64,000 bases of DNA from positions 15,569 to 79,568 of IMG/VR virus record IMGVR_UViG_3300045117_000026, one strand, 5' to 3'. The translations under genes and the position numbers were made by a program. Below the pieces are notes generated by a model that did not search any database, was not told the DNA's origin, and saw only the letters and a program-made list of their open reading frames with translations. Positions 2,069 through 32,148 of the stretch are shown piece after piece. Origin of the DNA: a virus. Numbering within the stretch: position 1 is the stretch's first letter; each line of letters opens with the position of its first letter.

Positions 2069-2878
2069 TTAGACTAATTCCGTTCCTGTAAGTTCAAATT
2101 GAATAGCCTGTTTATACCTGTCAACTGCTATACGGCAATAGCGTTCCTCGATGTCAATACCGATACACTTGCGTCCTAGTTTCTTGGCAGCAACAATAGC
2201 GGTACCCGAACCGAGAAACGGGTCAAGTATCGTTTGCCCCTCTAGTGAGTATGTCTGGATAAAGTACTCGAATAGCTTTAATGGTTTTTGTGTCGGATGC
2301 AATCCTCTGTCACCCGTTGCTCGGTTGTTAAACTCTACGACAGAAGACGGGAATCGCAAAGTGTCTGCTTTGTTATTATATTCCGCTTCTAGATTATTAA
2401 ACTTACCTACGAACTCGCCACTATTCCGGCGTGTCGCATCACTGAATAGGTACTTAACACGTTCTGTACCGCTTCCTCGCCTCTCTATCTTTATAGGATA
2501 GTAGTTCACCTTTGCTTTGCCGAACACAAGCACTTCCTCGTGCTCTTTCATCGGGGCATAGTCGGCTTGAGCAAAATTGCTCGCACACAGTTTCTTGTAT
2601 ATCCATTCATGCCTAAACTGCTTTGGATTACTGGAAACCAATACAGAAGTATATGGTTGGCTAGCAGTGAATATCATGGCAGAGGACGGCTTGATTAGCC
2701 GATTAAATAACGACCACATTTCGTTAGTAGGTATAGTTGAATCCCATGAGCAAGATGTTATCCCGTAAGGCGGGTCAGTTAGTATCAAGTCTATGCTCAG
2801 TTCGGGGAGTAATGGCAACACGCTCTTGTAGTCGGCATTATAGACGCATATGTCATTGTCTTGGAAATAGGGTTTCAT
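2069..2878 (-). CDS. DNA amino-methyltransferase (N6A/N4C, beta class)
   Basis: N-terminal DPPY, HPTQKP, C-terminal LDPFLGSGT SAM-binding motif. Confidence 0.93.
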   Translation of the reverse strand: MKPYFQDNDICVYNADYKSVLPLLPELSIDLILTDPPYGITSCSWDSTIPTNEMWSLFNRLIKPSSAMIFTASQPYTSVLVSSNPKQFRHEWIYKKLCASNFAQADYAPMKEHEEVLVFGKAKVNYYPIKIERRGSGTERVKYLFSDATRRNSGEFVGKFNNLEAEYNNKADTLRFPSSVVEFNNRATGDRGLHPTQKPLKLFEYFIQTYSLEGQTILDPFLGSGTAIVAAKKLGRKCIGIDIEERYCRIAVDRYKQAIQFELTGTELV

Positions 2879-2936
2879 CTATAGCTCCATTGCCTGTTGC
2901 GCCATTCGCGCGATAATCCATTTAGCACCCCCTTGC

Positions 2937-3413
2937 TTATGGTACTATGTACATTCTTTTTGCTACTACTACTGTCGGCGAGTACCGGAAGCCAAGCCAG
3001 TTGCGGAGTATATTACTGTTCTTGCCTTTAGCGACTACCTGCTCATAGCGGACTTTGAATACTTTATACCTACAAACTATCTGTGAATGGAGTTCTTGAG
3101 AAAGAAGCCTCTTTGCGTCCCTCTTGTTTGTATAGATATGAAAACCTGCCGGATAGCTATCATAGTCAAGACAAACAAGCACAGTAGAAGAGTCCTCCTC
3201 AGACATATGAACCGATTCGAGCAGAGCATTGTTAGCATCAGTGTACCATTTGGCTAATTGGAATGGCTCGTGCTCTGAGTCCCTGAATAGGCTGTGGAGT
3301 TTGTAATTAGCTTCTGTATCTTGCCTCTCATAGATAGCGAATACTTTATACCCAACCTTGATCTCTGTACTGGGTGTCTTGAATACCTTGAGACCTTTTG
3401 TTTGTAAGCACAT
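2937..3413 (-). CDS. Hypothetical phage protein
   Basis: 158-aa co-oriented ORF with VGYKVF and YPAGFHIY motifs. Confidence 0.65.
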   Translation of the reverse strand: MCLQTKGLKVFKTPSTEIKVGYKVFAIYERQDTEANYKLHSLFRDSEHEPFQLAKWYTDANNALLESVHMSEEDSSTVLVCLDYDSYPAGFHIYTNKRDAKRLLSQELHSQIVCRYKVFKVRYEQVVAKGKNSNILRNWLGFRYSPTVVVAKRMYIVP

Positions 3414-3422
3414 TTTATTCCT

Positions 3423-3761
3423 CTAGAATAAATGGTGGTAGCAAGTTCGATAATAGGGCCAGCCGGAACTATCTTTTGGATAATAGGGGTAGAGAGGATG
3501 CCAATAAGATGGTACGCCCAGCTCGTAGTGTGATTCCTTGTGGTTGGGGTTGTTCTTGCAGGTGCTGCACGCTATGCCCTCTTCTAGGCAGTTACCAGAG
3601 AATTGGCACCTTGTTGCTACTGTCTTTGTAATCCTTGTAATTCCTTCCATTGGTTTCTCCTTTATTCTTGTAATTTCATCGAAGCCGGTGTTTTCAAAAT
3701 GCAGAAATGTTTTAGCGAACCATTGCTCAAATCCGTTCATTAGCTTGCTCCATTCTCCCAT
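3423..3761 (-). CDS. Hypothetical protein with Cys cluster
   Basis: 112-aa co-oriented ORF. Confidence 0.55.
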   Translation of the reverse strand: MGEWSKLMNGFEQWFAKTFLHFENTGFDEITRIKEKPMEGITRITKTVATRCQFSGNCLEEGIACSTCKNNPNHKESHYELGVPSYWHPLYPYYPKDSSGWPYYRTCYHHLF

Positions 3762-3788
3762 CCAGCAATTCTTAATTTACCTTGCTTA

Positions 3789-4787
3789 TCATCCCAAGTC
3801 TGTAAATGCTGTAATAGATAACTGCTCGTGCTTCAGGCAACTAGGGGAAAACCATATTGTTTCACGCTTGCTGTTTTCACGCCCTTGCCCTTCGCCTTGA
3901 TTTCCGTAGCCACCCCCGGACTTCCATCGGTAAACAGCCCAATCATCGGGCATGGGATGTTCTGTATCATAACCGCATAGGGCAATCCGCATTAGTGGAT
4001 TTTTGCCTGCTTCGATTGCCCACGCTCTGACCTCCGCCGATACTGCATTACCGCCAGTAGTGTACATACTTTCATAGTCATCATACGGTGGGTCAAGGAA
4101 TATCCCCGTTAGTCCTAGCACAAACGTAGGTGACGGCGTTACTATACGTGACCAATCGCCACAGCATACACGCACATCCTTAAACCGTCCCGATAACCTA
4201 TCAAACCACTCATATAATGGTTGAGTGGGGCGGTTGACACCTTCCCCTAGGTTTCTCAGCTGAGGTAGTTGGCGGTTGATACCCCGTGAACCACTCATGT
4301 GGGGTAACTGACGATTGACACCCTGTCCTTTACCAGCCTTAACCATCAATCCATTCTCTGATACCCATGAGCCTTTTCCTCTACAAAAACCCCGACCTAT
4401 CCAGCAGGACATACCCCATGCCCACCAGCCTGCTATCTTTGGGTCATACCAATCAGGGTTGCCCTCCAGTTTAGCAGCCAGTTCATCCTTGCGCTGTACC
4501 AGCCAATAGTGACGGGCGTGTAGGTCATTCTCAATAACAGGATAATCCGCATATTCAGCCGTCTTCTGTGGGTCATGCTTAACTGCTCGCCAAAAGTTGC
4601 TAACGTAGCCATCTTTATCATTCACCGTTTCGATATGCCCTGTATGCCATGCCGGGCGGCGTAGCAAAACAGCACCGGAGCCAAAGAACGGCTCTACATA
4701 GTTCGGCACATCTCCGAACCTGCGCCATACCTCATCGGCTATTTTAGACTTCCCTCCGAAATAGGGGAACGGTGCTTCAAGTACCAT
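3789..4787 (-). CDS. Dam/D12-class DNA adenine methyltransferase
   Basis: PFPYFGGKS, YVEPFFGSGAV, ETVNDKD and FLDPPY; internal G[VI]NRQLP repeats. Confidence 0.92.
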   Translation of the reverse strand: MVLEAPFPYFGGKSKIADEVWRRFGDVPNYVEPFFGSGAVLLRRPAWHTGHIETVNDKDGYVSNFWRAVKHDPQKTAEYADYPVIENDLHARHYWLVQRKDELAAKLEGNPDWYDPKIAGWWAWGMSCWIGRGFCRGKGSWVSENGLMVKAGKGQGVNRQLPHMSGSRGINRQLPQLRNLGEGVNRPTQPLYEWFDRLSGRFKDVRVCCGDWSRIVTPSPTFVLGLTGIFLDPPYDDYESMYTTGGNAVSAEVRAWAIEAGKNPLMRIALCGYDTEHPMPDDWAVYRWKSGGGYGNQGEGQGRENSKRETIWFSPSCLKHEQLSITAFTDLG

Positions 4788-4800
4788 CGGCTACTCGCTT

Positions 4801-5025
4801 TTATAACTCTCTTTTCATAAACCGCTTGACTTTTCTGACAACTTCGGCAGACTGTTTCCTGACTGCTTCCGCAACGGATGACTCGTTATCCGAACTGTAA
4901 GGATTGGTAACAACCACCAGTATCCCGATGTTCTTGTATCGGAGACCCACCCTGTAACAGTATTCGCACCCTTCTTTGGAAATGCGGTGAGAAGCACCTA
5001 GCCTATTTACAATTATCCTATCCAT
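4801..5025 (-). CDS. Small hypothetical protein
   Basis: 74-aa co-oriented ORF. Confidence 0.55.
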   Translation of the reverse strand: MDRIIVNRLGASHRISKEGCEYCYRVGLRYKNIGILVVVTNPYSSDNESSVAEAVRKQSAEVVRKVKRFMKREL

Positions 5026-5236
5026 TATCTCTCCCCATGCTTACGTCTGTCACAAGGGCTAACGACTTTGCTTTCTCAAATGCCTCTCGTAATTCATCGT
5101 AAGCCTCAACGTCATCAAGAACTCGCTCGGCGTCATTTATCGCTTGTATTAACGGCGTAACATCCACAAGTCTGTTGTCGATTCTTCCAACGGCAATCTT
5201 AGCCATTTTAATAAGTTGTTCTACTTCTTTTAGCAT
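5018..5236 (-). CDS. Small helical hypothetical protein
   Basis: ATG at 5236 with GGAG upstream; overlaps the stop of the C5 MTase. Confidence 0.55.
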   Translation of the reverse strand: MLKEVEQLIKMAKIAVGRIDNRLVDVTPLIQAINDAERVLDDVEAYDELREAFEKAKSLALVTDVSMGRDNG

Positions 5237-6390
5237 CGTTGCCTCTCCACATCCGCTATCGCCTTGAGTATTGGGTAAGCCTGTGGGACGCAAATTGCAT
5301 TACCTAACGCCGTGAGCCGGTTGACCCTTTCCGTTTTGTCTGTCGTGAGGGGGTGCGGCATTTCCCATTCTCCCCCTGCCCAGGTGGGGATATATCCAGC
5401 CAGCCCTTCGGAAATCCCATCATCCATGCTACAAAGTCGGGGTTCAATGTCCCCTTGTTTTTCGGAAACTGGTTTGTCCATTCGGGCAGATTCCCGTGAT
5501 AATCCTTGCTCCCCGGTTTCCTGGTGGACACGCATCCCTTGTAATCCCTTGCCGACGGAGTGGGTATCGTGACTGAACGAGTCAGTGATTGATATTGACC
5601 GCTCTCCCGTGTCGCATTGTTGGCGTCGTCCGCTGTCGGTGTAGCCAATAATCCAGACCCGGTCCCGGCGGTGGATGGCGTTGACGGCGCAAGCTGGAAT
5701 AATAATCGGTTGGACTCTGTAACCGATTCGCTCCATCTCGGTTGTGATTCCGTCCAACCACGAAAACAATTCTGCTTGTGTCTGACCACCTTCTTCGTCC
5801 TCGTCACCCGCCACTTCAGATACGCTATCTGACTTGTCCATTCCCTTGATTCCAGCAGGATTCTCAAACACGCACCAAGTGGGTCTGAGTTCTTCAAGCA
5901 CGCGGATAGTTTCATCCCAGAGCCAGCGGTCATCTGCCGTGCCTCCTCGCTTCCCGGCAACACTGACAGGCTGGCATGGAGGAGAGGCTGTAAGCAGGGT
6001 GAGGGGGATTGACCAACTCTGACTGCTATCCCCAACGGTGTTCCCCCTTGCTGATAAGGGGTTTTCCTGTCCCCCTCGCTGGCTCTCGGTGTCGGCAGTA
6101 ACCCCTTTTGTGCGAATGTTTCCAGCGTCCTGTCCGATTGCCGCTTGCTGCGAGGATTGTATTCCTTGCCAGGTCCTCTCCGTCCGTCCCATGCATTTGG
6201 TGTCGGAATTAATCCGCTCATACGTAACCTCCTTGACATCTGAGATAATCGGCACACCTGGGAAATGGTGTCTGAGTATGGATTGGCAGTAGGGGTTGAT
6301 TTCACATAGGGCAACCGTGCGAAACCCTGCCCATTCAGCAGCCAAGGTAAACCCGCCAATCCCGCTATACAGGTCGATGTGCGATAACAT
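5230..6390 (-). CDS. C5 cytosine DNA methyltransferase (alpha polypeptide)
   Basis: Motif I (DLYSGIGG), IV (PPCQ), VI (ENP), VIII (HRRDRVW) and X (ALGNA); motif IX missing from this frame. Confidence 0.9.
   Translation of the reverse strand: MLSHIDLYSGIGGFTLAAEWAGFRTVALCEINPYCQSILRHHFPGVPIISDVKEVTYERINSDTKCMGRTERTWQGIQSSQQAAIGQDAGNIRTKGVTADTESQRGGQENPLSARGNTVGDSSQSWSIPLTLLTASPPCQPVSVAGKRGGTADDRWLWDETIRVLEELRPTWCVFENPAGIKGMDKSDSVSEVAGDEDEEGGQTQAELFSWLDGITTEMERIGYRVQPIIIPACAVNAIHRRDRVWIIGYTDSGRRQQCDTGERSISITDSFSHDTHSVGKGLQGMRVHQETGEQGLSRESARMDKPVSEKQGDIEPRLCSMDDGISEGLAGYIPTWAGGEWEMPHPLTTDKTERVNRLTALGNAICVPQAYPILKAIADVERQRC
5304..6221 (-). CDS. Alternative-frame beta polypeptide of the C5 MTase (motif IX-like)
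   Basis: Nested ORF with perfect AAGGAGGT SD (6234-6227) before the ATG at 6221; PTP-x-A repeats and LNPDFVAWMMGFPKGW. Confidence 0.75.
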   Translation of the reverse strand: MSGLIPTPNAWDGRRGPGKEYNPRSKRQSDRTLETFAQKGLLPTPRASEGDRKTPYQQGGTPLGIAVRVGQSPSPCLQPLLHASLSVLPGSEEARQMTAGSGMKLSACLKNSDPLGACLRILLESREWTSQIAYLKWRVTRTKKVVRHKQNCFRGWTESQPRWSESVTESNRLLFQLAPSTPSTAGTGSGLLATPTADDANNATRESGQYQSLTRSVTIPTPSARDYKGCVSTRKPGSKDYHGNLPEWTNQFPKNKGTLNPDFVAWMMGFPKGWLDISPPGQGENGKCRTPSRQTKRKGSTGSRR

Positions 6391-6405
6391 TCCCTATTAT
6401 CTTGT

Positions 6406-6993
6406 CTACTTAAGACACTCCTCTAAAACTCCTGTAAGCATCATCACCAGCACAAAGGCATGGCCCATCTTACGGTCCGGATTATTGATTACGTCTTTAA
6501 GTGTCATGCCCAATACTACATGGTCATAAGCGTCATAGTCACGCAGTATGATGTTTTGTCCCTCAGTATAGAGGGATTGTAACCGCTTGAATGCGCTGGT
6601 CTGTCCTACATACTTGGAATAAATTGGTACGTAGATAGCTTTCCTTGCTTCAACATAACTCAACCTCTCGCCGTTCCAGTATGAATACTCAGCCTTTACA
6701 CCTTTGCCCATCGGATAGCGTACTGGAGTATTCAGCTTAAGCCCAGCCTCTCGCCACTTAAACCAACCGGCATTAGGGAAGCCGTTCTTATTGACGTGCT
6801 GTAAATATACTTTGCTGTACTGCCAGAGGTTCTCGAATATCACACCATGAGGATTAAACTCGACAGCAAAGGGTATGCGGAGTATGAACGGGCTTAGTTC
6901 CTTGAAAACACTATTCGATGATGATGTTGTATCTATATCCACCACGGGCTGTGGTTCATTATGCTTGGCAAACTTAAATAAGGCTTTTATCAT
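6406..6993 (-). CDS. DUF6939-like protein (possibly NADAR-related)
   Basis: FENLWQYSKVY, RYPMGKG, LSYVEARKAIYVPIY and GHAFVL motifs. Confidence 0.5.
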   Translation of the reverse strand: MIKALFKFAKHNEPQPVVDIDTTSSSNSVFKELSPFILRIPFAVEFNPHGVIFENLWQYSKVYLQHVNKNGFPNAGWFKWREAGLKLNTPVRYPMGKGVKAEYSYWNGERLSYVEARKAIYVPIYSKYVGQTSAFKRLQSLYTEGQNIILRDYDAYDHVVLGMTLKDVINNPDRKMGHAFVLVMMLTGVLEECLK

Positions 6994-7299
6994 TATAGTT
7001 CCTTTACTATCTTCCAATCTTTTACCAAGCCCTCTTTCTCTTCGGGCATTTCTGTTCTAAAGTTATAAAGCCACAGCACGATATCCTCTAGCTTCTCAGC
7101 AAAGTCTTTTACATTATGGTCAAGTGTTATTTCAATAAGATATTTCCTGCCCATTGTTACTCCTCTTTAGCTTTCATTATGGGTATCTCCTTAGAAAATA
7201 TCATGAATTAACATTATGAGTCCGTAGACTGCACCGACAAGGATTGCAATGTCTATCAAGATACCAATGGCTACTATGAACCACTTAATCATTATATCT

Positions 7300-8520
7300 T
7301 TAATCCAAACTCAACCCAGGTGTCACCGTAACCCTGTGTTTAATCAGTTCGCAATAGTTCTCGGATTGCTCCACCAGTATTGACCGCCTGCCTAATTGAG
7401 TCGCTACCTTTCCTGTAGTACCTGTTCCGGCGAACGGGTCAAGGACAATTTGCGGTTCAATAGGAGCATTACAATCGCACTGTGGTACCCAAGAACTTTT
7501 AGTTACCTGCGACATTCGTTCCAAAATGCGTTGCTTCAGGCGTGAGGGAGTAACGGCGCCAGTACCTTCATAATCTTTCATGTCGCTACCGAAATACTCG
7601 CCGTCACTATTACAGCCGGCTCGTTTCATTTCCTCGGTAATCTGGTGGTCAATAATAGTAATCTCACGCTGCCAAGGTTTGCCACACTTTGAGCATTGTC
7701 CTTTAGCAGATGTAGCCATTGAAATACACAGGCGAGGTATCTCTTCGGGGAAAGCAGCGAAGTGCGAAAGCCAATTATTTGTCCCACACTTCCGGCACCA
7801 CCGCCCATCTTCTTTGAGAACAGTCCCCTTGGTGAATTCATCCCGCCCGTAAATCGTCTTGCACGTCAGGCACATATTGGCTGAGTAAGATACAGTCGGT
7901 ATCTCCCATATTGCTCGGATGTTTCTGCCCGAGTTTGCGCACCTGTCACCAGGCTCGACTTGCCTCATGCCGTGCTCACCCTGCCCCTTAAGCTTCATGT
8001 TGCCATCGCCATATTCATTGCGCATTCTGGTTGACTCTTTATATGGGACACGGACGGCTTCCATGTCAAAGAAGTAATCTTCATTTAGCACAAACATAAG
8101 AATATGCTCGTAGTCAATCGTCGGTCTATCCGGTGCGGATGACGGCATTGAATTCGGCTTCACCCATATTATATCAGCTCGTGGTATCCAGCCCTCATCA
8201 GCTAATGCTATAGCAATGCGATGCGGGATTAACTCGAGGTCCTTTGCTCTGGTGACGCCGAACTTATCGCCGACATTCCAGAAAACAACCCCGTCATTAC
8301 GCAACACTGGTAACAGCGAGCCACAAAAGAAATCAACTGTATGCTGTACATATTCGGCAACCGTTTTCTCTGCTCCAAACCATGCGTTACCATCATAGTC
8401 TCGCTGATTGAAATACGGTGGCGAAGTGACTACGCATTGTACCTGGTAGGGCAGGGTGGCAAGGTCCTTGTTATCTCCATGATAGAGGGAGAGGAGAGGG
8501 GTCTGGTAAAAGACTTTCAT
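7300..8520 (-). CDS. N4-cytosine-type DNA methyltransferase with Zn-ribbon insertions
   Basis: VTSPPY, HFAAFP and LDPFAGTGTT; inserted CxxC pairs. Confidence 0.9.
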   Translation of the reverse strand: MKVFYQTPLLSLYHGDNKDLATLPYQVQCVVTSPPYFNQRDYDGNAWFGAEKTVAEYVQHTVDFFCGSLLPVLRNDGVVFWNVGDKFGVTRAKDLELIPHRIAIALADEGWIPRADIIWVKPNSMPSSAPDRPTIDYEHILMFVLNEDYFFDMEAVRVPYKESTRMRNEYGDGNMKLKGQGEHGMRQVEPGDRCANSGRNIRAIWEIPTVSYSANMCLTCKTIYGRDEFTKGTVLKEDGRWCRKCGTNNWLSHFAAFPEEIPRLCISMATSAKGQCSKCGKPWQREITIIDHQITEEMKRAGCNSDGEYFGSDMKDYEGTGAVTPSRLKQRILERMSQVTKSSWVPQCDCNAPIEPQIVLDPFAGTGTTGKVATQLGRRSILVEQSENYCELIKHRVTVTPGLSLD

Positions 8521-15077: not shown

Positions 15078-15884
15078 TTACACCTCATTAACGTAAACAT
15101 AATCTACCAAGAGGTAGATAGCATCTTGTTTATCAGAGGGGGAGAGCGGAGCATCGGTGCGCAGTAGGTTAATAAGCCTTTTAGCAATAGACTTATCAAG
15201 GGTATCTCGCAAAGAACCAGATGTTGCCGGACCATTGTAATTGTAATGAGCCTCAAGAGGGTACTCGTCTACAAGAGGAGCTTTTGATACATTAGTCTCT
15301 GGTAGCGGGTCAGCCTTGACTGTTACAGGCGCAGTTGTGAATACTTGAGTTAGCGTGCCTTTACCTCCCCATGTATCTGCTTTATCCGGCATTGACAAGA
15401 GGAATGTTTTTGTTTCCTCTGCCCATTTGGTATGATCGGGCCAGTCATGCACATGGACCGTAATCTCTTTCACCATGACTGCACCGCACAATGTCTTTCC
15501 TTTGACTGATGCGCTGATGGCGCCGGAGTTGGTGATTATCAAGCTGACAGGATTATTGGCGTCTACATAACTCTGATCAGCCGGCGAATGGAATGTCCCC
15601 ATGTTGTGGTGCGAATGTATGACGCCGACTTTCCGCTCCGGGGAGACTTCCCCAGGTAACATCTCGCACCAGCCGGAACTGGGTTTGACCTGGCGTGGAA
15701 TAACGATGTCATCGACAAGTACCAGTTCATCAGAGATCGTGCCGAGACACCATCCAATCCACTCAAGGTTGCTCATTGCATCGCATAGGGAACATGCTTT
15801 GGCAAAGGCGTCAAGGGTTATTGAAACATCTGGGAAGATACCGGGTTTTCCGCATTGGGTAATACACTCTTTAGATTGCCACAT
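15078..15884 (-). CDS. JAB/MPN+ (JAMM) metallo-isopeptidase
   Basis: N-terminal Glu (LEWIGW) and H-S-H-x7-S-x2-D (HSHHNMGTFHSPAD). Confidence 0.9.
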   Translation of the reverse strand: MWQSKECITQCGKPGIFPDVSITLDAFAKACSLCDAMSNLEWIGWCLGTISDELVLVDDIVIPRQVKPSSGWCEMLPGEVSPERKVGVIHSHHNMGTFHSPADQSYVDANNPVSLIITNSGAISASVKGKTLCGAVMVKEITVHVHDWPDHTKWAEETKTFLLSMPDKADTWGGKGTLTQVFTTAPVTVKADPLPETNVSKAPLVDEYPLEAHYNYNGPATSGSLRDTLDKSIAKRLINLLRTDAPLSPSDKQDAIYLLVDYVYVNEV

Positions 15885-26647: not shown

Positions 26648-27760
26648 TTAAGGAAGCCGGAGCTTGTGGCGTCGCTCCATCGTGGAAAAGGCTTCCAGGC
26701 GCTCGCGCTCGGCTATGAAGCACTCCTGCGCCCTCATCCCCTGCTCCACGGATATGCGGGTCGTGTCCCTCTCGATCTCGTCCCTATCGGGACATAGTCT
26801 TGATACCAAGTCCTCTATCTGCTGGTAGCGCTCCTGGGCTTCCCGCTTCTCTACCAACTTCAGCATGAGTGCGTGGTCACGGTACACTTCCCTCTTCGCA
26901 GCCACCACAATGGTAAGCACCATGTCAGGCGGCACCTTGTGCCACCTTGGTTTGTACCGCTTCATCGCCACCTGTAGGGTGATGGGGTCCTTGCGGTACT
27001 TCCACCAGTATTCCATTCCCCCGTAGTGATGGGGACAATCGGCGGCTTCTTTGGAATAGACGCAGTTGGTACAAGTCTGTTTAACCGCTGTACCTGGCTT
27101 CTTCGGGTTGTATACCAGAGTCCGCATTAACTGCGCCTGACGGAGCAATGACCTGTCGGGCTTGCACCGCCATAAGCCGGAATGTTGTTCGTAGGTGAAA
27201 GGTGGTCGCTCATAAGTGCCGCACCTTTCGGTAATGATGTCATTACGGATGTTGAACTTGTGGATGTAATTGGCTAGGGGATGCTCCATGCTATCCCAGT
27301 GGTCACACCCCTTGCGAGTGGTACACTGCGGGCACCGGCATCCCACAACCCGTGGGTAGCCATTCCCGTCACATAACGCTGGCACATTCAACCCTGGATA
27401 GACAACGGTGTCTTCACCAGCGGTAAAGTCCCAGCCGAATGCAGTTACCTTGCCGGTGTCATGGTCATGCGGAGGCTGCCGCTTGGGACAGACCTCAGCG
27501 GCGATGCACCTCAGATTTTCACTCGGTCGGTAACACTTCAAATGTACTGCAGAGAGCGGCATCCATCGGGGCTTCTTCCGTTCCTCCTCTTGGAGACGGA
27601 GATATTCCTCGAACGCCGCATTCCGTTCAGCCGTCGGTAACGAGTTGATCTCCTTGAGGGTACGGCGCTTGGTAACTTGCGCCGTACCTTTCAAGGACTT
27701 CCGGCGGACAGAGGGTGCTCTCGTGATCGTACCGTCGAGGTTAATAAGCACCCTACCCAT
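26648..27760 (-). CDS. Cys/His-rich hypothetical early protein
   Basis: 370-aa ORF, second gene after the leftward promoter; N-terminal INLDGTIT. Confidence 0.75.
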   Translation of the reverse strand: MGRVLINLDGTITRAPSVRRKSLKGTAQVTKRRTLKEINSLPTAERNAAFEEYLRLQEEERKKPRWMPLSAVHLKCYRPSENLRCIAAEVCPKRQPPHDHDTGKVTAFGWDFTAGEDTVVYPGLNVPALCDGNGYPRVVGCRCPQCTTRKGCDHWDSMEHPLANYIHKFNIRNDIITERCGTYERPPFTYEQHSGLWRCKPDRSLLRQAQLMRTLVYNPKKPGTAVKQTCTNCVYSKEAADCPHHYGGMEYWWKYRKDPITLQVAMKRYKPRWHKVPPDMVLTIVVAAKREVYRDHALMLKLVEKREAQERYQQIEDLVSRLCPDRDEIERDTTRISVEQGMRAQECFIAERERLEAFSTMERRHKLRLP

Positions 27761-27763
27761 TGA

Positions 27764-28072
27764 CTAGTTTCCTGCCGGTGCAGTTTCGATGGTTGCCGGG
27801 ACTTCGGTGACCTTGGCAGCGACCTTCTTGGGACGGGGAGTAGCCTTCTTCCCCGGACGAGCCAGGAGATTGGAGGCGATTTTGACGCAGTAATCAAGGA
27901 TGGCGGAATCGGGGGCGTTGGTGAAGCGCTTCTGGAGGCGATCCCATGCCTTGAGTCCCTCATCGGACAGGGTCGTGCTCTTGCGACCGGGGTACTTGAC
28001 CTCACCGTTGCCAGAGGCGCCGCCGGTGATGGTCCCATCGAGTTTGATTTCCACCTTGGAACGAGTAGACAT
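27764..28072 (-). CDS. Putative ribbon-helix-helix DNA-binding protein
   Basis: RKSTTLSDEGLKAWDRLQKRF...SAILDYCV resembles CopG/Arc; GAAAGGAG SD; basic tail. Confidence 0.55.
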   Translation of the reverse strand: MSTRSKVEIKLDGTITGGASGNGEVKYPGRKSTTLSDEGLKAWDRLQKRFTNAPDSAILDYCVKIASNLLARPGKKATPRPKKVAAKVTEVPATIETAPAGN

Positions 28073-28212
28073 CTTGGGTCTCCTTTCCTATTTGGTGCCA
28101 CACCCGGTAAGCGTATGCTCCTCGCTGGTGTAGTCACCTGTCAGGTGCTTGCGGAGCTTTTGGTCTATCGACCCCTCGACCCCACGCTCCGCCCTGCCTC
28201 CCTGACAGTGAT

Positions 28213-28241
28213 ATTCTAGCATAGCCAGACTAGGCAGTCAA
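28213..28241 (-). promoter_or_regulatory. Leftward sigma70-type promoter
   Basis: TTGACT-17bp-TAGAAT with extended TG. Confidence 0.8.
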
Positions 28242-28297
28242 GTCGGTACTGTGGGTGAACTGGGTGCTGTGGGAGGCCAGGGTGCTGACTACCGGCT

Positions 28298-28976
28298 GAG
28301 TATATACCCACAGAGTATATACCCGCGTGGTATATACCCCCCTGATAGCCCACTGACTCAGGTGGCATAGGTGGGCAGTACCCGGCCGGAGGAAGCCCCG
28401 CAAACACGCAAAATCCTTTCAGGAAGGGGCATCCTTGGGGGTGGCAAGGGAATCAGTCACCCAGGTGGAAATGGACACCAAATAGGGGCATTGCACAACG
28501 TTTTCCTCGTGGGCGTTTAAGGGGCCGTAGGTGGACAAGGTATATACCCACGTTGGTGCTGGCACCTCGATTTGCGTTTAATAGGCCGGGTATATACCCA
28601 AACGGCACCCCCACCATCTCAGGTATATACCCGCGTTAGGTATATACCCAAACGAGTGGGCTATTAGGCTTGGTATATTCCCCTGTCTCTATCTTTGTAC
28701 TGCACCTAGTACTATATCTAGTATTATATATTATATTATATATTATATATATATATATATATTATATAGTGCACAGGGGGGTGGGGATGATATTGCTTAT
28801 AGAGAGCAATATCATATGGGGTGGGGCTGTAGTATGCACATGTAATTAACATGCACTTAATAGACCCCACCCACTGTGCTCTTTATAAGCACAGTACCCC
28901 ACCCCCCATTGTTGTGCAATATGGACTAAGACCTATATATGGACCAAGACCTATGTAGGTGCTGTAGGTATATACC
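28298..28976. repeat. Cluster 1 of GGTATATACC(C) palindromes with AT tract (origin-like)
   Basis: Copies at about 28298, 28313, 28329, 28539, 28588, 28622, 28639, 28672 and 28967; pure A/T at 28722-28768. Confidence 0.85.
28919..28954 (+). repeat. 18-bp tandem direct repeat
   Basis: ATATGGACTAAGACCTAT / ATATGGACCAAGACCTAT. Confidence 0.85.
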
Positions 28977-29078
28977 GTCTTAATAGCCCACTGAAAATGG
29001 TAGTGGACACCAACTACACCTATATGACCATATGCACCATGGTACGTCTGCCTGGTGTTCGGCTTGCCTCAGTAATAG

Positions 29079-29107
29079 TTGACAAGGCATAGCCGATATG
29101 ATAGACT
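29079..29107 (+). promoter_or_regulatory. Rightward sigma70-type promoter
   Basis: TTGACA-17bp-TAGACT with extended TG. Confidence 0.8.
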
Positions 29108-29155
29108 ATTTACAGTCAGACGACAGACGTTTGACAGGAAAGGAGAAAGGGTATC

Positions 29156-29281
29156 ATGGGTGACACGGGGTGTAGGTCTTTCGGACGTCAAGTGCGACTC
29201 TCACACACCGATGGCTACACGGCTAGAGTACAACGATGTCTCGAGGACTTACATCGCAAGGTAAGGCAAGTGAGGAGCTAG
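29156..29281 (+). CDS. 41-aa ORF (not in the ORF track)
   Basis: GAAAGGAG SD, MGDTGCRSFGRQ...; stop is 1 nt before the next start. Confidence 0.45.
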   Translation: MGDTGCRSFGRQVRLSHTDGYTARVQRCLEDLHRKVRQVRS

Positions 29282-29282
29282 G

Positions 29283-29498
29283 GTGAATTACTTCGTCAAC
29301 AAGAACCAAACACCTGAAGAGAGGAGAGCCAAGTATGCTCTCCTCCGCTCCCACGGATTTAGCCCCATGAGGGCAAGGAGAATGAGAGACTGCACAATGT
29401 CCACGATAAGGAGTTTCGTCAGCTCCGGGTTCACCGATAATTGCTTCGGTAGACCCACGACACACATCTCACTCGATGGTATAGTAACGAAATATTAA
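29283..29498 (+). CDS. Small basic hypothetical protein
   Basis: GAGGAG SD, GTG start; C-terminal HISLDGIVT. Confidence 0.65.
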   Translation: MNYFVNKNQTPEERRAKYALLRSHGFSPMRARRMRDCTMSTIRSFVSSGFTDNCFGRPTTHISLDGIVTKY

Positions 29499-29696
29499 GG
29501 AGACGGCAGTGGACCCAATTGTACAACTAATAGAGGCTATCGCCAGGGACATCACCGTAAGGGATGAGAATGGCAACCCTACACTCGCTACTGACTCCGA
29601 CAGGGAACTAGGGATTCTCGGAATACTGGCTGCTTACTCCATTGGTGAAGAGGCTGTCACCAATATCCTGGGGAAATAAATATAAAGGAGAACGAA

Positions 29697-30026
29697 GTGA
29701 AAGGACTTATCAAGCACCACGAAGTCGCAGTCTCCGAACTCCCGATGTGCGACATCTGTAAGAAACAGGTAGCCGCCTACGATGCCAAGATGAAAGCGGG
29801 GCCGTGGGCCTACATGTGCGAGAGCTGCTTCGGCTCTCACGGGATCAGCACCGGGCTGGGGCTGGGACAGCGACTCATCTGGTGCGAACCAGTGAACCTG
29901 CCCGCCACCGCTCCAGTGCCCTCTGTACCACTTCACGTCGGCACCAACAAGGTGGTGCTCTTCGGCACACCGCTCAATGTGAAAGTGGGAGTCAAGGGGC
30001 AAGTCACCAAAATCCAAGTCATCTAG
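29697..30026 (+). CDS. Conserved phage Zn-finger protein
   Basis: CDIC...YDAK...GPWAYMCESCF..HG..G.GLGQ; AAAGGAG SD. Confidence 0.75.
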   Translation: MKGLIKHHEVAVSELPMCDICKKQVAAYDAKMKAGPWAYMCESCFGSHGISTGLGLGQRLIWCEPVNLPATAPVPSVPLHVGTNKVVLFGTPLNVKVGVKGQVTKIQVI

Positions 30027-30036
30027 ACCACTGACC

Positions 30037-30078
30037 AAAGGGGGCCGGGGCCTTTCTCCCCGGCCCCCTTTTCTTTTT
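30037..30078 (+). terminator. Intrinsic terminator
   Basis: AAAGGGGGCCGGGG-N7-CCCCGGCCCCCTTT followed by a T-rich tail. Confidence 0.9.
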
Positions 30079-30089
30079 GTCCGCAGTTA

Positions 30090-30372
30090 AATACCCGGTA
30101 TGTATATACCCATAGGTATACTTGGAGCAAGCTCCACTAGCCAAAGGCGATTCAAGAGGTGGTGCACATGGATAATACCCATACCGCAGGTGCTTGCCCC
30201 GTTTGCGTTTAATAGGACGGATGGTATATACCCATTGGTATACACGGAATATACCTATTGGCGTTTAAGAGGACGGTACGGATGGTATATACCCACGACG
30301 TGGGAGCGCTCAAGATTGCGTTTAAGAGGACGGTATATACCCATAGGTACGTATACGTGGGAATATACCCAC
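30090..30372. repeat. Cluster 2 of GGTATATACCC and GCGTTTAA-x-AGGACGG repeats
   Basis: GTATATACCC at about 30102, 30222, 30284 and 30333; GCGTTTAA[TG]AGGACGG at 30205, 30261 and 30318. Confidence 0.85.
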
Positions 30373-30392
30373 GACAGCCTGGAGGGGGCCAC

Positions 30393-30422
30393 AAAAAAAA
30401 GAGGCTGTCTTGCGACAGCCTC
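30393..30422 (-). terminator. Intrinsic terminator (minus strand)
   Basis: GAGGCTGTC-GCAA-GACAGCCTC followed by T8 on the minus strand. Confidence 0.9.
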
Positions 30423-30445
30423 TTTCACTGTGTTGCTACTCTGGC

Positions 30446-30727
30446 TTATGGCATCGGTAGTAAGTCTCGATCGCCTTTGCCTTCGACGATATCGTGTCTG
30501 CCTGAAGCCGTCATGTCGCCATACAGCCGACTTCGCCAAAATTGGCAGCCGGCTTTTTTATTTAGCAAGCCAAAGCTTTTCAATATCTTGGCTTGCTTCT
30601 GCCTGCCTTTTCTATCAAGACTTTTATACTTCAAGTCTTGACACGGCTTGGCAGCCGGACACACTAAACACTTGTAGTTGCCACGTGTGACTACGCCGTC
30701 GCTGATGCCTGATAAAATCTCTGCCAT
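30446..30727 (-). CDS. Small basic Cys-containing protein
   Basis: 93 aa with CLVC...C; GAAAGAGGC upstream. Confidence 0.6.
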   Translation of the reverse strand: MAEILSGISDGVVTRGNYKCLVCPAAKPCQDLKYKSLDRKGRQKQAKILKSFGLLNKKAGCQFWRSRLYGDMTASGRHDIVEGKGDRDLLPMP

Positions 30728-30785
30728 ACTTTTGCCTCTTTCGTTTCATATTTGGCAGTTTATACGATACTGCCAAACGTCTTGA

Positions 30786-30884
30786 TTATGATAACTTTGC
30801 TTTTAACTCTGCCAATGTAGCGTTTTTTGCCTTGAGTATCTTTTTGACGTCTGCCATCTTGCCTATGATTTTGACAATCAACAT
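30786..30884 (-). CDS. 32-aa Lys/Ala-rich peptide (not in the ORF track)
   Basis: MLIVKIIGKMADVKKILKAKNATLAELKAKLS; AGAAGAGGC upstream. Confidence 0.55.
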   Translation of the reverse strand: MLIVKIIGKMADVKKILKAKNATLAELKAKLS

Positions 30885-30992
30885 CGCTGCCTCTTCTCTT
30901 ATGTATTGGCAGTTCTACGCTACTGCCAAACGGCTGAGATGTATTTAGCAGACTATTTGCTTACTCGCCGTCTGCCATGGCGATTTTCGTCT

Positions 30993-31454
30993 CTAGACTT
31001 TCGCCTCTTCTGCTTCAGCCTTCGCCGTAGCTGTTTTCTTCGTCTCTGCCTTTGCCTTTGCCTCTGCCTTTGCCTTTGCCTTTGCTGTAGCCTTGGCAGT
31101 AGCTTCAGCCTTTGACTTGATTTCGCTTCTGAGTTCAGCAATTTCATCAGCAAACGTAGTCACTGATGCAGCCTCAAGCCTTGCTATGGCTGCTTGAATA
31201 GCTGCCTTGCGATGCGATGACGTGTTATAGCCAGACTTGACAGCAGTGTACATCACGCAATAGTTCATCACCATTGTCATTGATACCTCATCGCCTTTAT
31301 TCTTCGCCTGTAGCCATAAGCGAACGAACATCAAGAATGCTAAGTAAAGTGGCTGTATGAAGTAATGAAGAGTATTTCTCTTCACTTGAACACCGCCGGC
31401 GTCTTTGCTTCTAGCGCCGCTGATTTTGCCATCTAGAGAGATTATTGTTTTCAT
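30993..31454 (-). CDS. Basic protein with AK-rich tail; likely paralog of 27764-28072
   Basis: IISLDGKISGA N-terminus, NYCV, (AK)n tail. Confidence 0.7.
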   Translation of the reverse strand: MKTIISLDGKISGARSKDAGGVQVKRNTLHYFIQPLYLAFLMFVRLWLQAKNKGDEVSMTMVMNYCVMYTAVKSGYNTSSHRKAAIQAAIARLEAASVTTFADEIAELRSEIKSKAEATAKATAKAKAKAEAKAKAETKKTATAKAEAEEAKV

Positions 31455-31706
31455 TTTAGTAGCCTTTTCTACTTTAACAGTTAGGCGTTTAATATTTCGT
31501 CTAACTCTATCATTCTAGGCTTCAACATCTAAGCTTTAATGATAGTGATTGCCTGTCTAGCTTTGAATTTGCCTGTTTATAGCCTCCTGACTATTGACGC
31601 CGGCTAATAGCCGGCTGATTAGCATAAGCTAATCAAGGCAATCATTGAAACTGTATTAAATTGTTAACTGTTTTCGTATCGTCGTGACATACGAAAGTAT
31701 GTCACT

Positions 31707-31735
31707 ATAATATATTTCAACATTTGATATGTTAA
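31707..31735 (-). promoter_or_regulatory. Putative leftward promoter with an adjacent palindrome
   Basis: TTAACA-17bp-TATTAT; GTGACATAC-GAAA-GTATGTCAC (31684-31705) covers the predicted start site. Confidence 0.55.
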
Positions 31736-32148
31736 TACGTGTAACCACTACACTTTTACGAATGAGCTTTATAGGTATCCTTACATGGTTAAAGCCAGGT
31801 GTATGGGGGATTCCCTCTCGTCCAATTTGCGTCGGGCCAGTGGAATTTGGGCAATTCTACTTATGGTGATTGAGCGAAGTGGACGGTGGCGGATGGTGGT
31901 GGGGATGATAGAGTAGCCGCATAGGAGGGCGAATTCGATGAAGAACATAACTCGGGCGAAATATATAACCAAGGTAAAATACATTGCGATTGCGTTGCTA
32001 GGGGCGATTTTGGCGCCTGTTTTGCTGTGGGTGGCACTCGGGGTCGCCTTGCATATCAGGTGCCGTAAAAACAGCCCCAGACAACGATTTAGCGAGATAC
32101 TACAAAAGGTCGGCACTTGTTGATAACTACCGACAATTTGTATGGCCC

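Follow-up and report, generated by a model that had tools for sequence, protein, structure and literature searches.

A predicted small gene unit of an uncultured lake-water phage is written almost without the DNA words GGD/HCC

Organisation of the locus

The region described here lies in a linear record of an uncultured lake-water phage (IMG/VR record IMGVR_UViG_3300045117_000026, 79.6 kb, 67% complete), of which positions 15,569 to 79,568 form the window of 64,000 nucleotides; all coordinates refer to this window. Next to the terminase gene, and next to a dense cluster of GGTATATACCC boxes, lies a 1358-bp stretch that coincides with one leftward predicted transcription unit, running from a sigma-70-like promoter in a face-to-face promoter switch to a strong intrinsic terminator. 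Between these lie three small orphan ORFs and two copies of a 29-bp operator-like palindrome (Table 1). The two opposing promoters were found in a genome-wide promoter scan.

Table 1. Predicted features of the island (window coordinates)
Position	Strand	Feature	Description
30387..31744	.	Island purged of HCC/GGD (ACC, CCC, TCC / GGT, GGG, GGA)	6 such triplets against about 120 expected; GCC/GGC number 77, 1.9x the genome rate; G+C 43% against 48%
31707..31735	-	Sigma-70-like promoter of the island unit	TTAACA-17-TATTAT, reading leftward
31684..31711	+	Overlapping rightward promoter	GTGACA-16-TATAAT, 11 of 12, best match in the genome; its -10 hexamer lies on the same bases as the -10 of the leftward promoter
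31684..31705	.	Perfect 9-bp inverted repeat	GTGACATAC-N4-GTATGTCAC, across both promoter cores; candidate operator of the switch
30993..31454	-	ORF of 153 aa	Orphan; N-terminal motif IISLDGKIS, three helices and a long Ala/Lys-rich helix (AKAKAEAK repeats); glycine is GGC in 5 of 6 codons
30904..30932	.	29-bp element, copy 1	CGTTTGGCAGTAKCGTAKAACTGCCAA, with 8-bp arms TTGGCAGT/ACTGCCAA; upstream of the 32-aa ORF
30786..30884	-	ORF of 32 aa	Lys/Ala-rich; Shine-Dalgarno site GAGGC
30750..30779	.	29-bp element, copy 2	Upstream of the 93-aa ORF
30446..30727	-	ORF of 93 aa	Orphan; Shine-Dalgarno site GAGGC; poor structural model (pLDDT 36), so that it is uncertain that a protein is made
30393..30426	-	Intrinsic terminator of the unit	13-bp stem, GCAA loop and run of eight U (-27.5 kcal/mol, z = -5.4); first banned triplets begin 5-9 nt beyond the U run

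Depletion of three trinucleotide pairs

A sequence-only reading of the region had drawn attention to 30423-31740 as a segment in which CC/GG occurs almost only as GCC/GGC, and this observation is confirmed. Between these positions there are 53 GCC and 20 GGC (73 in total), three ACC, and one each of GGT, TCC and GGA, while CCC/GGG is absent, in agreement with the earlier hand count of roughly 70 against about 6. The natural limits of the island are slightly wider, at 30387-31744: a GGGGG ends at 30388 and the next ACC is at 31744. From genome frequencies the expected counts within these limits are 33.9 for CCC/GGG, 42.8 for GGA/TCC and 42.5 for ACC/GGT, against observed counts of 0, 2 and 4, respectively (Poisson P(X<=6 | 122.8) = 2e-44), while all other trinucleotide pairs lie between 0.5x and 2x of expectation. 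Of 79 CC/GG steps in the island, 73 are in GCC/GGC context, compared with 24.6% window-wide (binomial 2e-37). In an unbiased scan of all two- and three-letter words over the 79.6-kb record, the three strongest gaps are these three word pairs, all of them at this locus. No other 300-bp window of the genome has fewer than 11 such triplets, whereas windows of the island have 0-5. Outside the island the words occur at 9.0 per 100 bp, and the flanks are rich in them, the left lying in the 98th-99th percentile and the right in the 92nd. The Shine-Dalgarno sites within the island do read AAGGC or GAGGC, as had been pointed out. Logan contigs from independent lake-water runs bridge both junctions with no differences, so the island is not an assembly chimera; only identical copies were found in these runs.

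The bias survives both shuffled and codon-matched controls. Two thousand dinucleotide-preserving shuffles gave 52.5±4.1 HCC/GGD triplets (minimum 39) against the 6 observed. When the two larger ORFs were resampled to encode the same proteins with the codon usage of the phage, 24.8±4.2 (minimum 12) and 23.1±3.9 (minimum 11) triplets were obtained, or about 48 together, against 3 and 2 observed. Glycine is encoded by GGC in 16 of 17 cases, against 29% in the phage; threonine by ACC in 0 of 15, against 29%; and serine by TCC in 0 of 17, against 18%. The 515 bp of non-coding DNA hold 2 such triplets where about 45 are expected. On the message strand GGD occurs 4 times and HCC 2 times, each with about 60 expected, so the bias is symmetric. 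GCC/GGC is not depleted: it is at the codon-expected level in the ORFs of 153 and 32 aa, somewhat above it in the 93-aa ORF (22 against 15.0±2.8, P≈0.014), and 1.7x enriched in non-coding DNA. The tetranucleotide CCGG is at normal frequency but is forced into GCCGGC.

Searches for homologues, relatives and a donor

No homologue of the island DNA or its proteins was found in phage records by blastn or tblastn, in PHROGs, or by a word search of 5.8 billion clustered proteins; a phmmer search of 1.8 billion representatives gave only one spurious low-complexity hit, and the ESM Atlas gave nothing. AlphaFold2, run without an alignment, predicted an all-helical structure for the 153-aa protein (pLDDT 67) with no Foldseek match in the PDB, while the 93-aa protein was not foldable. 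Rfam gave nothing for the island or for the left end, and no tRNA genes were found. The pattern TTGGCAGT-N10-ACTGCCAA had 26 matches in IMG/VR, in contigs with no purged island near them, and these are treated as unrelated, probably chance.

Terminase relatives are only 41-48% identical and sit on short contigs with no purged stretch upstream; a 250-bp dip in L004 was weak and was discounted. No prophage relatives, no further IMG/VR relatives and none through the adjacent gene p370 were found. Apart from the banned words the unit looks native: the tetranucleotide signature outside GG/CC words gives r = 0.64 (rank 10 of 56), within the native range, and the 153-aa protein shares the rare N-terminal motif [ILV]x[LIV]DGx[IV][TS] with the adjacent genes p102 and p370, which are of normal composition. 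Only five hits to this motif occur in all six frames of the genome, four of them within 4 kb.

DNA-modifying enzymes and genome-wide word avoidance

The phage encodes at least four DNA methyltransferases, namely two of the beta-class (N6/N4), one Dam-like and one C5, together with radical-SAM and glycosyltransferase genes. The methyltransferase genes lie at window positions 2069-2878, 3789-4787, 5230-6390 and 7300-8520, with a Dam domain in the head module. The C5 gene (window 5230-6390, minus strand) matches PF00145 at 67.8 bits and belongs to the dcm superfamily. Its closest relatives are 26-45% identical, too distant to place it in the clade of phage C5 methyltransferases that mostly target GpC[C/T] (PMC8256090). 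The TET partner of that clade was found neither in this record, which gave no Tet_JBP match, nor in four records of the closest methyltransferase relatives, although in the latter search the controls also did not match. Profile searches with PF01702, PF06508, PF01242 and PF01227 gave no match in the 79.6-kb record, while all controls matched; thus no DpdA/TGT, QueC, PTPS or FolE domain was found in the available 67% of the genome.

The genome as a whole avoids GATC, GGCC (O/E 0.41), TGCA, CGCG and TTTAAA. Palindromes containing GGD/HCC were examined for weaker genome-wide avoidance than others, as a hint of protection, but they are not less avoided (O/E 0.78 against 0.86 and 0.81).

A possible mark-free unit

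The analysis establishes the depletion itself, its symmetry between strands, its presence in coding and non-coding DNA alike, its achievement mainly by synonymous choice together with lower Gly, Pro and Trp content, and its coincidence, to within about 10 bp, with the limits of the predicted promoter and terminator. What follows is inferred, from sequence alone. It is tempting to suggest that the island is one native, self-contained regulatory or early transcription unit, kept by purifying selection on double-stranded DNA free of the degenerate word GG[A/G/T] = [A/C/T]CC, with GGC/GCC exempt. In this view the word is the recognition site of a DNA-acting enzyme that works on the rest of the genome, where it occurs about once per 11 bp at normal or high density and so is not harmful in itself, and that distinguishes the third base. 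The most likely candidate would be one of the phage's own DNA-marking enzymes, and the unit would stay unmarked so that the unmodified host RNA polymerase and the unit's own putative operator-binding proteins can read it, for example straight after DNA entry. Published phage DNA modifications do act on words of two to three letters. Nevertheless, this explanation is tentative: no enzyme with GGD/HCC specificity was identified, no relative with the same locus was found in which conservation, the usual proof of selection, might be seen, and simple methylation is not known to stop host RNA polymerase, so the benefit of staying unmarked is conjecture.

The interpretation offered by the sequence-only reading is partly supported by these results. 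Strong selection at the DNA level is supported by the codon-matched and shuffle controls, the non-coding DNA and the equality of the strands; transfer from a donor with the same bias, which would have told against it, finds no support but is not excluded. That the segment is the first-injected end remains a suggestion, in a linear fragment whose termini are not mapped. That GCC is tolerated because a phage C5 enzyme methylates it has a real precedent (PMC8256090), and a C5 gene is present, but of undetermined specificity. What the earlier reading missed is that the island is exactly one promoter-to-terminator unit.

The boldest form of the proposal, which is possible but rather less likely than not, is that this phage marks, or lets be read, its whole genome at GGD/HCC with an enzyme of undescribed specificity while keeping one regulatory or early unit as a programmed mark-free zone, and that the unit would be one member of a widespread, unpublished class of motif-purged phage cassettes. 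If so, the banned word in such a unit is a sequence-only read-out of what a phage's DNA-modifying enzyme, or its host's DNA reader, recognises, and modification specificities could be predicted from metagenomes without chemistry. It would also show that dense DNA marking has a cost that phages solve by keeping their first or regulatory genes unmarked. The present instance is informative because GG/CC is not banned as such: the third base decides, which narrows the candidate reader to something with GGD/HCC specificity, or to a CC/GG reader blocked by GpC methylation. It also shows how far selection on DNA words can reshape codon choice and protein composition.

Alternative explanations

The alternative closest to the earlier proposal, which we regard as unlikely but the strongest of the rivals, is evasion of a host factor (a frequent-cutting nuclease or nickase, a PAM-reading CRISPR complex, or a silencer) that acts on CC/GG steps, by a unit that is exposed first or alone, as first-entering DNA or first-expressed genes, with GCC/GGC shielded through methylation of the adjacent GpC by the phage C5 enzyme. 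In its favour, 73 of the 79 CC/GG steps abut a GpC step, tested phage C5 methyltransferases mostly act on GpC[C/T] (PMC8256090) and the enriched GC-containing words of the island are both GCC/GGC (1.9x) and GCT/AGC (1.5x), and the neighbouring boxes could mark a special DNA region. The chlorella-virus pair Nt.CviPII/M.CviPII shows that three-letter (CCD) nicking and methylation pairs exist. However, the distance of the C5 enzyme from its relatives and the absence of a TET match in four of their records do not help this view, GGCC, which such methylation would cover, is strongly avoided genome-wide, and no PAM or nuclease is known that is blind to GCC only. It is less likely still that the unit is a recently imported cassette whose bias, shared by the whole donor genome, has no function here. 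Its promoter-genes-terminator layout, lower G+C and orphan proteins, and the absence of anything like it upstream of the terminase in relatives, are as expected of such a cassette, but no donor was found in the libraries searched, the remaining signature is within the native range, the rare N-terminal motif is shared with neighbours, and a genome-wide ban of three word pairs would itself need the same kind of explanation.

Two further possibilities appear improbable. Repeated cytosine deamination at CC in single-stranded DNA of a heavily transcribed unit, by an enzyme that disfavours G at position -2, might have erased HCC on both strands; the limits do match a transcription unit, G+C is lowered, and the order of tolerance GCC >> ACC > TCC > CCC is the reverse of the preference of CC-specific deaminases such as APOBEC3G. 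Yet the expected product words are not enriched (ACT/AGT 1.13, TCT/AGA 1.20, ATC/GAT 0.95, CTC/GAG 0.63, TTC/GAA 0.93), the gains being instead in GCC/GGC, AGC/GCT and AAA/TTT, as expected from codon replacement; ORFs, Shine-Dalgarno sites, operators and the terminator are intact; and we know of no described bacterial CC-specific transcription-coupled deaminase. Alternatively the words might be avoided in the transcript, for example to escape a ribonuclease, Rho loading or stray Shine-Dalgarno/anti-Shine-Dalgarno pairing. The island ends within about 10 nt of the predicted 3' end of the transcript, the message strand is purine-rich (58%), as in Rho-avoiding genes (PMC13323073), and GGA, GGG and GGU are the cores of Shine-Dalgarno-like words; but GGD and its complement are equally absent from the same strand, which fits a double-strand reader rather than an RNA one, and the real Shine-Dalgarno sites keep GAGG and simply add C.

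Comparison with known systems

Literature searches for a described word-free phage gene unit found nothing, and the island is best compared with known systems one by one. Among motif-specific phage DNA modifications, DpdA-dependent 7-deazaguanine occurs at GA and GGC in CAjan (PMC7544227), phage C5 methyltransferases act at GpC[C/T] with TET and glycosyltransferases (PMC8256090), and PA5oct carries guanine modification at GA/GG and Pbunavirus thymine modification at TG (PMC12191111). These show that phage enzymes mark DNA at words of two to three letters, including words that discriminate GGC/GCC from other GG/CC contexts, which is the kind of specificity the island implies. GGD/HCC is not a published specificity, this record has no DpdA, Que or TET genes, and none of these papers, as far as we have read them, reports a modification-free gene unit.

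The first-step-transfer (pre-early) region of phage T5 and the transcription-entered leading end of T7 offer the parallel of a small, separately controlled set of first-acting genes that sits apart from the rest of the genome, next to a repeat-rich region. In the present linear, incomplete record there is no evidence for a genome end, a terminal repeat or two-step entry; the island proteins have no homologues, of T5 pre-early genes or otherwise, in PHROGs, phage records or the large protein libraries; and the T5 region is not known for a word ban.

In restriction-site and PAM avoidance in phage genomes (e.g. Rusinov et al. 2018, PMC6286503), selection removes a short DNA word that an enzyme reads, largely through synonymous codons, and in the island too a defined word is significantly under-represented against composition-matched expectation. 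Here, however, the word is a degenerate one of three letters, far shorter than restriction sites, and its avoidance does not extend over the genome: it is removed almost completely, but only inside one 1.36-kb unit, and is normal or enriched everywhere else. With the morons of temperate phages, which are promoter-gene-terminator cassettes of deviant composition, the island shares its layout, having its own predicted promoter (31735..31707) and terminator (30426..30397) and a G+C content different from that of the flanks. The signs of a foreign origin are mixed: the deviation of the island in its words is limited to three word pairs, while the remaining signature is within the native range and the main gene has motif-sharing neighbours.

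A unit depleted of GGD and HCC

In positions 30423-31740 there are 53 GCC, 20 GGC, 3 ACC, 1 GGT, 1 TCC and 1 GGA, and no CCC or GGG, so that the hand count of the sequence-only reading was confirmed exactly. The positions of all [A/C/T]CC and GG[A/G/T] triplets (hereafter HCC and GGD) put the natural limits of the island at 30387 and 31744: a GGGGG run ends at 30388, and the next ACC starts at 31744. Inside these 1358 bp there are only six exceptions, listed in the table below. GGCC is also absent, while CCGG occurs five times, about the genome rate, and four of the five are GCCGGC. The flanks are indeed rich in the depleted words, as had been claimed, the left flank lying in the 98th-99th percentile and the right flank in the 92nd.

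The depletion was compared with several expectations. From the trinucleotide frequencies of the genome itself, the island should hold 33.9 CCC/GGG, 42.8 GGA/TCC and 42.5 ACC/GGT, and it holds 0, 2 and 4 respectively (Poisson probability 2e-44); every other trinucleotide pair lies between 0.5x and 2x of expectation, with GCC/GGC at 1.9x. Given that a CC/GG step is present, 73 of 79 are in GCC/GGC context, against 24.6% window-wide (2e-37). Dinucleotide-preserving shuffles give 52.5±4.1 depleted triplets, with a minimum of 39. Recoding of the ORFs with the phage's own codon usage, while keeping the proteins, gives 24.8±4.2 (minimum 12) against 3 observed for the 153-aa ORF, and 23.1±3.9 (minimum 11) against 2 for the 93-aa ORF. 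The 515 bp of non-coding DNA holds 2 such triplets against about 45 expected, and no other 300-bp window of the 79.6-kb record has fewer than 11. To guard against choosing the word after seeing it, all 10 dinucleotide and 32 trinucleotide strand-symmetric words were scanned for their longest gaps. The three strongest anomalies of the whole genome are CCC/GGG (1419 bp, E = 8e-13), GGA/TCC (928 bp, 5e-10) and ACC/GGT (814 bp, 2e-8), and all three lie in this island. Contigs from independent lake-water metagenome runs cross both junctions with no differences, so the island is not an assembly artefact.

Organisation of the island and its surroundings

The window belongs to a single-contig virus record of 79,568 bp, classed as linear and 67% complete. 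The early and DNA-metabolism genes run leftward from about 28.1 kb, while the terminase and virion genes run rightward from 32.2 kb, and the island lies between these two arms as one leftward transcription unit, as judged from its sequence signals. A sigma-70-like promoter overlaps, -10 on -10, the best sigma-70 match of the whole genome, which faces rightward, and a perfect inverted repeat GTGACATAC-N4-GTATGTCAC spans both cores, an arrangement that looks like a switch. There follow a 245-nt leader, an ORF of 153 aa, a 29-bp element (CGTTTGGCAGTAKCGTAKAACTGCCAA, with 8-bp palindromic arms), an ORF of 32 aa, a second copy of the element, an ORF of 93 aa, and finally a strong intrinsic terminator. 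The banned triplets resume 5-9 nt beyond the U run on the left and 9 bp upstream of the -35 hexamer on the right, so the island and the transcription unit coincide. The three Shine-Dalgarno sites read AAGGC, GAGGC and GAGGC, keeping the GAGG core and adding a C. The only canonical AGGAGG in the island lies instead in the 5' leader, in the loop of a predicted small hairpin; no start codon follows it, and it supplies one of the six exceptions.

The region between the left arm and the island is rich in repeats, and holds many GGTATATACCC boxes preceded by GCGTTTAAKAGG. It also contains further word gaps, being free of AA/TT for 135 bp and of CG for 323 bp, and Logan contigs break here at two places. 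Just right of the island, upstream of a 61-aa membrane-like ORF and the terminase gene, lies a G-rich run of GGTGG-type words (GGACGGTGGCGGATGGTGGTGGGG), which by resemblance alone recalls Chi-type or packaging-signal sequences.

Coordinates of the island, its predicted features and neighbouring features (window positions)
Feature	Position	Direction	Description
Island	30387-31744		1358 bp
Exceptions to the ban	30456; 30657; 31270, 31285 and 31392; 31585		GGT; GGA; ACC; TCC
Sigma-70-like promoter of the unit	31735..31707	leftward	TTAACA-17-TATTAT
Overlapping promoter	31684-31711	rightward	GTGACA-16-TATAAT
AGGAGG in the 5' leader	31583-31590
153-aa ORF	30993-31454	leftward
29-bp element, first copy
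32-aa ORF		leftward
29-bp element, second copy
93-aa ORF		leftward
Intrinsic terminator	30426..30397 plus eight U	leftward	-27.5 kcal/mol, z = -5.4
Gene p102	27764-28072	leftward	neighbour of normal spelling
Gene p370	26648-27760	leftward	neighbour of normal spelling
Hits of [ILV]x[LIV]DGx[IV][TS]	27745, 28048, 29466, 31442		within 26648-31454
Repeat-rich region	28200-30372
AA/TT-free stretch	28258-28393		135 bp
CG-free stretch	28653-28976		323 bp
Breaks of Logan contigs	28716-28775 and about 30340
G-rich run	31860-31905		GGTGG-type words
DNA methyltransferase cluster	2069-8520		four genes

How the words are avoided

In the three ORFs, glycine is GGC in 16 of 17 codons, against 29% in the phage; threonine ACC is 0 of 15 (29% in the phage), and serine TCC is 0 of 17 (18%). 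Proline is used only as CCA or CCG after a G. The 153-aa protein is also poor in Gly, Pro and Trp (3.9, 0.7 and 0.7% against 7.5, 5.0 and 2.0%). Two of the six exceptions come from codon pairs ending in G followed by a GTN valine codon, and the Met-Val pair (ATG-GTG) cannot avoid GGT. In contrast, GGC/GCC is not avoided: its count equals the codon-resampled expectation in two ORFs (25 against 24.3, and 4 against 4.3), is somewhat higher in the third (22 against 15.0±2.8), and in non-coding DNA is 1.7x the genome rate. Lysine AAG before GCN is used as freely as elsewhere. On the message strand there are 4 GGD and 2 HCC, each with about 60 expected, and the ban is therefore strand-symmetric. Taken together, these results support selection on double-stranded DNA against a three-letter word whose third base matters; the pattern is not codon bias and not a protein property.

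Origin and possible role of the unit

The island DNA and its proteins have no match in phage records, in PHROGs, or in protein libraries of 5.8 billion and 1.8 billion sequences. When all tetranucleotides that contain GG or CC are left out, the signature of the island correlates with the rest of the genome at r = 0.64, which is inside the range of native segments of equal length (rank 10 of 56, median 0.73). This is also above its correlation with each of the five unrelated phage loci tested, though only narrowly for one of them (locus L001, 0.60; the others 0.15-0.47). The 153-aa protein begins MKTIISLDGKIS. The pattern [ILV]x[LIV]DGx[IV][TS] has only five hits in all six frames of the genome, of which four lie within 4 kb of each other. 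Three of these sit at residues 5-12 of consecutive leftward genes, namely this one, p102 and p370, and the fourth at the C-terminus of a small plus-strand ORF; the motif may be a shared N-terminal tag, for example for targeting or processing. Pairwise BLAST is weak (E 0.03-0.04). The two neighbouring genes write the same motif with GGG, ACC and GGT, and lie in the most GGD/HCC-rich DNA of the window. We take this as moderate evidence that the gene is native and has been recoded, rather than imported with its bias, although the only copies found in public runs are identical, the nearest terminase relatives (41-48% identity) sit on short contigs without any such stretch, and no other route gave relatives.

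Structure prediction for the 153-aa protein gives an all-helical model, with a hydrophobic first helix and a long Ala/Lys-rich helix (pLDDT 67), which returned no fold match; the 93-aa ORF folds poorly. The switch-like promoter pair and the two operator-like palindromes suggest a regulatory role for the unit.

What might read the word

The ban itself, its sharp limits, its strand symmetry and its presence in both coding and non-coding DNA are established from the sequence and are statistically overwhelming, whereas the existence of an enzyme or factor that reads the word, any mark on the remaining DNA, and a regulatory role of the genes are inferred. The rest of the genome carries GGD/HCC once per 11 bp, so the word is not harmful in itself, and only this unit must lack it. 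Two families of explanation fit. In the one that we tentatively prefer, at rather less than even confidence, the word is the site of a DNA mark that the phage puts on its own genome, and this unit must stay unmarked. The phage encodes, in one cluster, two beta-class N6/N4 methyltransferases (269 and 406 aa), a D12/Dam-like enzyme (332 aa) and a C5 methyltransferase (386 aa), with a DUF6939 gene between the C5 gene and the second N6/N4 gene; it also has radical-SAM, cytidylyltransferase-like and glycosyltransferase genes. However, none of these enzymes can be tied to GGD/HCC, and 7-deazaguanine and TET genes were not found in the available 67% of the genome. In the other, which was proposed in the sequence-only reading and which we consider doubtful, a host factor would read CC/GG steps on the first-entering or first-expressed DNA, and GCC would be shielded by GpC methylation. 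This is attractive because the CC/GG steps of the island (73 of 79) abut a GpC, and because GCC and GCT, the published targets of one clade of phage C5 methyltransferases, are the two enriched GC-containing words. The shield is nevertheless assigned to the C5 enzyme of this phage only by analogy: the relatives of this enzyme are distant, and no TET neighbours were found for them. Moreover, GGCC is avoided genome-wide (O/E 0.41), which such methylation should make unnecessary. Also strongly avoided over the whole record are GATC (O/E 0.24), TGCA (0.55), CGCG (0.52), TTTAAA (0 against 18), CAGCTG, ATCGAT and GGAACC (1 against 23), while GGCA/TGCC is the most over-represented tetranucleotide. The interpretation offered with the original observation is supported in part.

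Other explanations are less likely. The footprint of a deaminase is improbable, because the expected product words are not enriched and all functional elements are intact. A cause at the RNA level is unlikely, because complementary words are equally absent from one strand. Neutral import of the unit cannot be excluded, but nothing supports it.

A literature search found no paper that describes such word-purged phage units. Published phage DNA marks do, however, act on words as short as the one implied here: GA and GGC for DpdA of phage CAjan (PMC7544227), GpC[C/T] for phage C5 methyltransferases (PMC8256090), and GA/GG and TG in Pseudomonas phages (PMC12191111).
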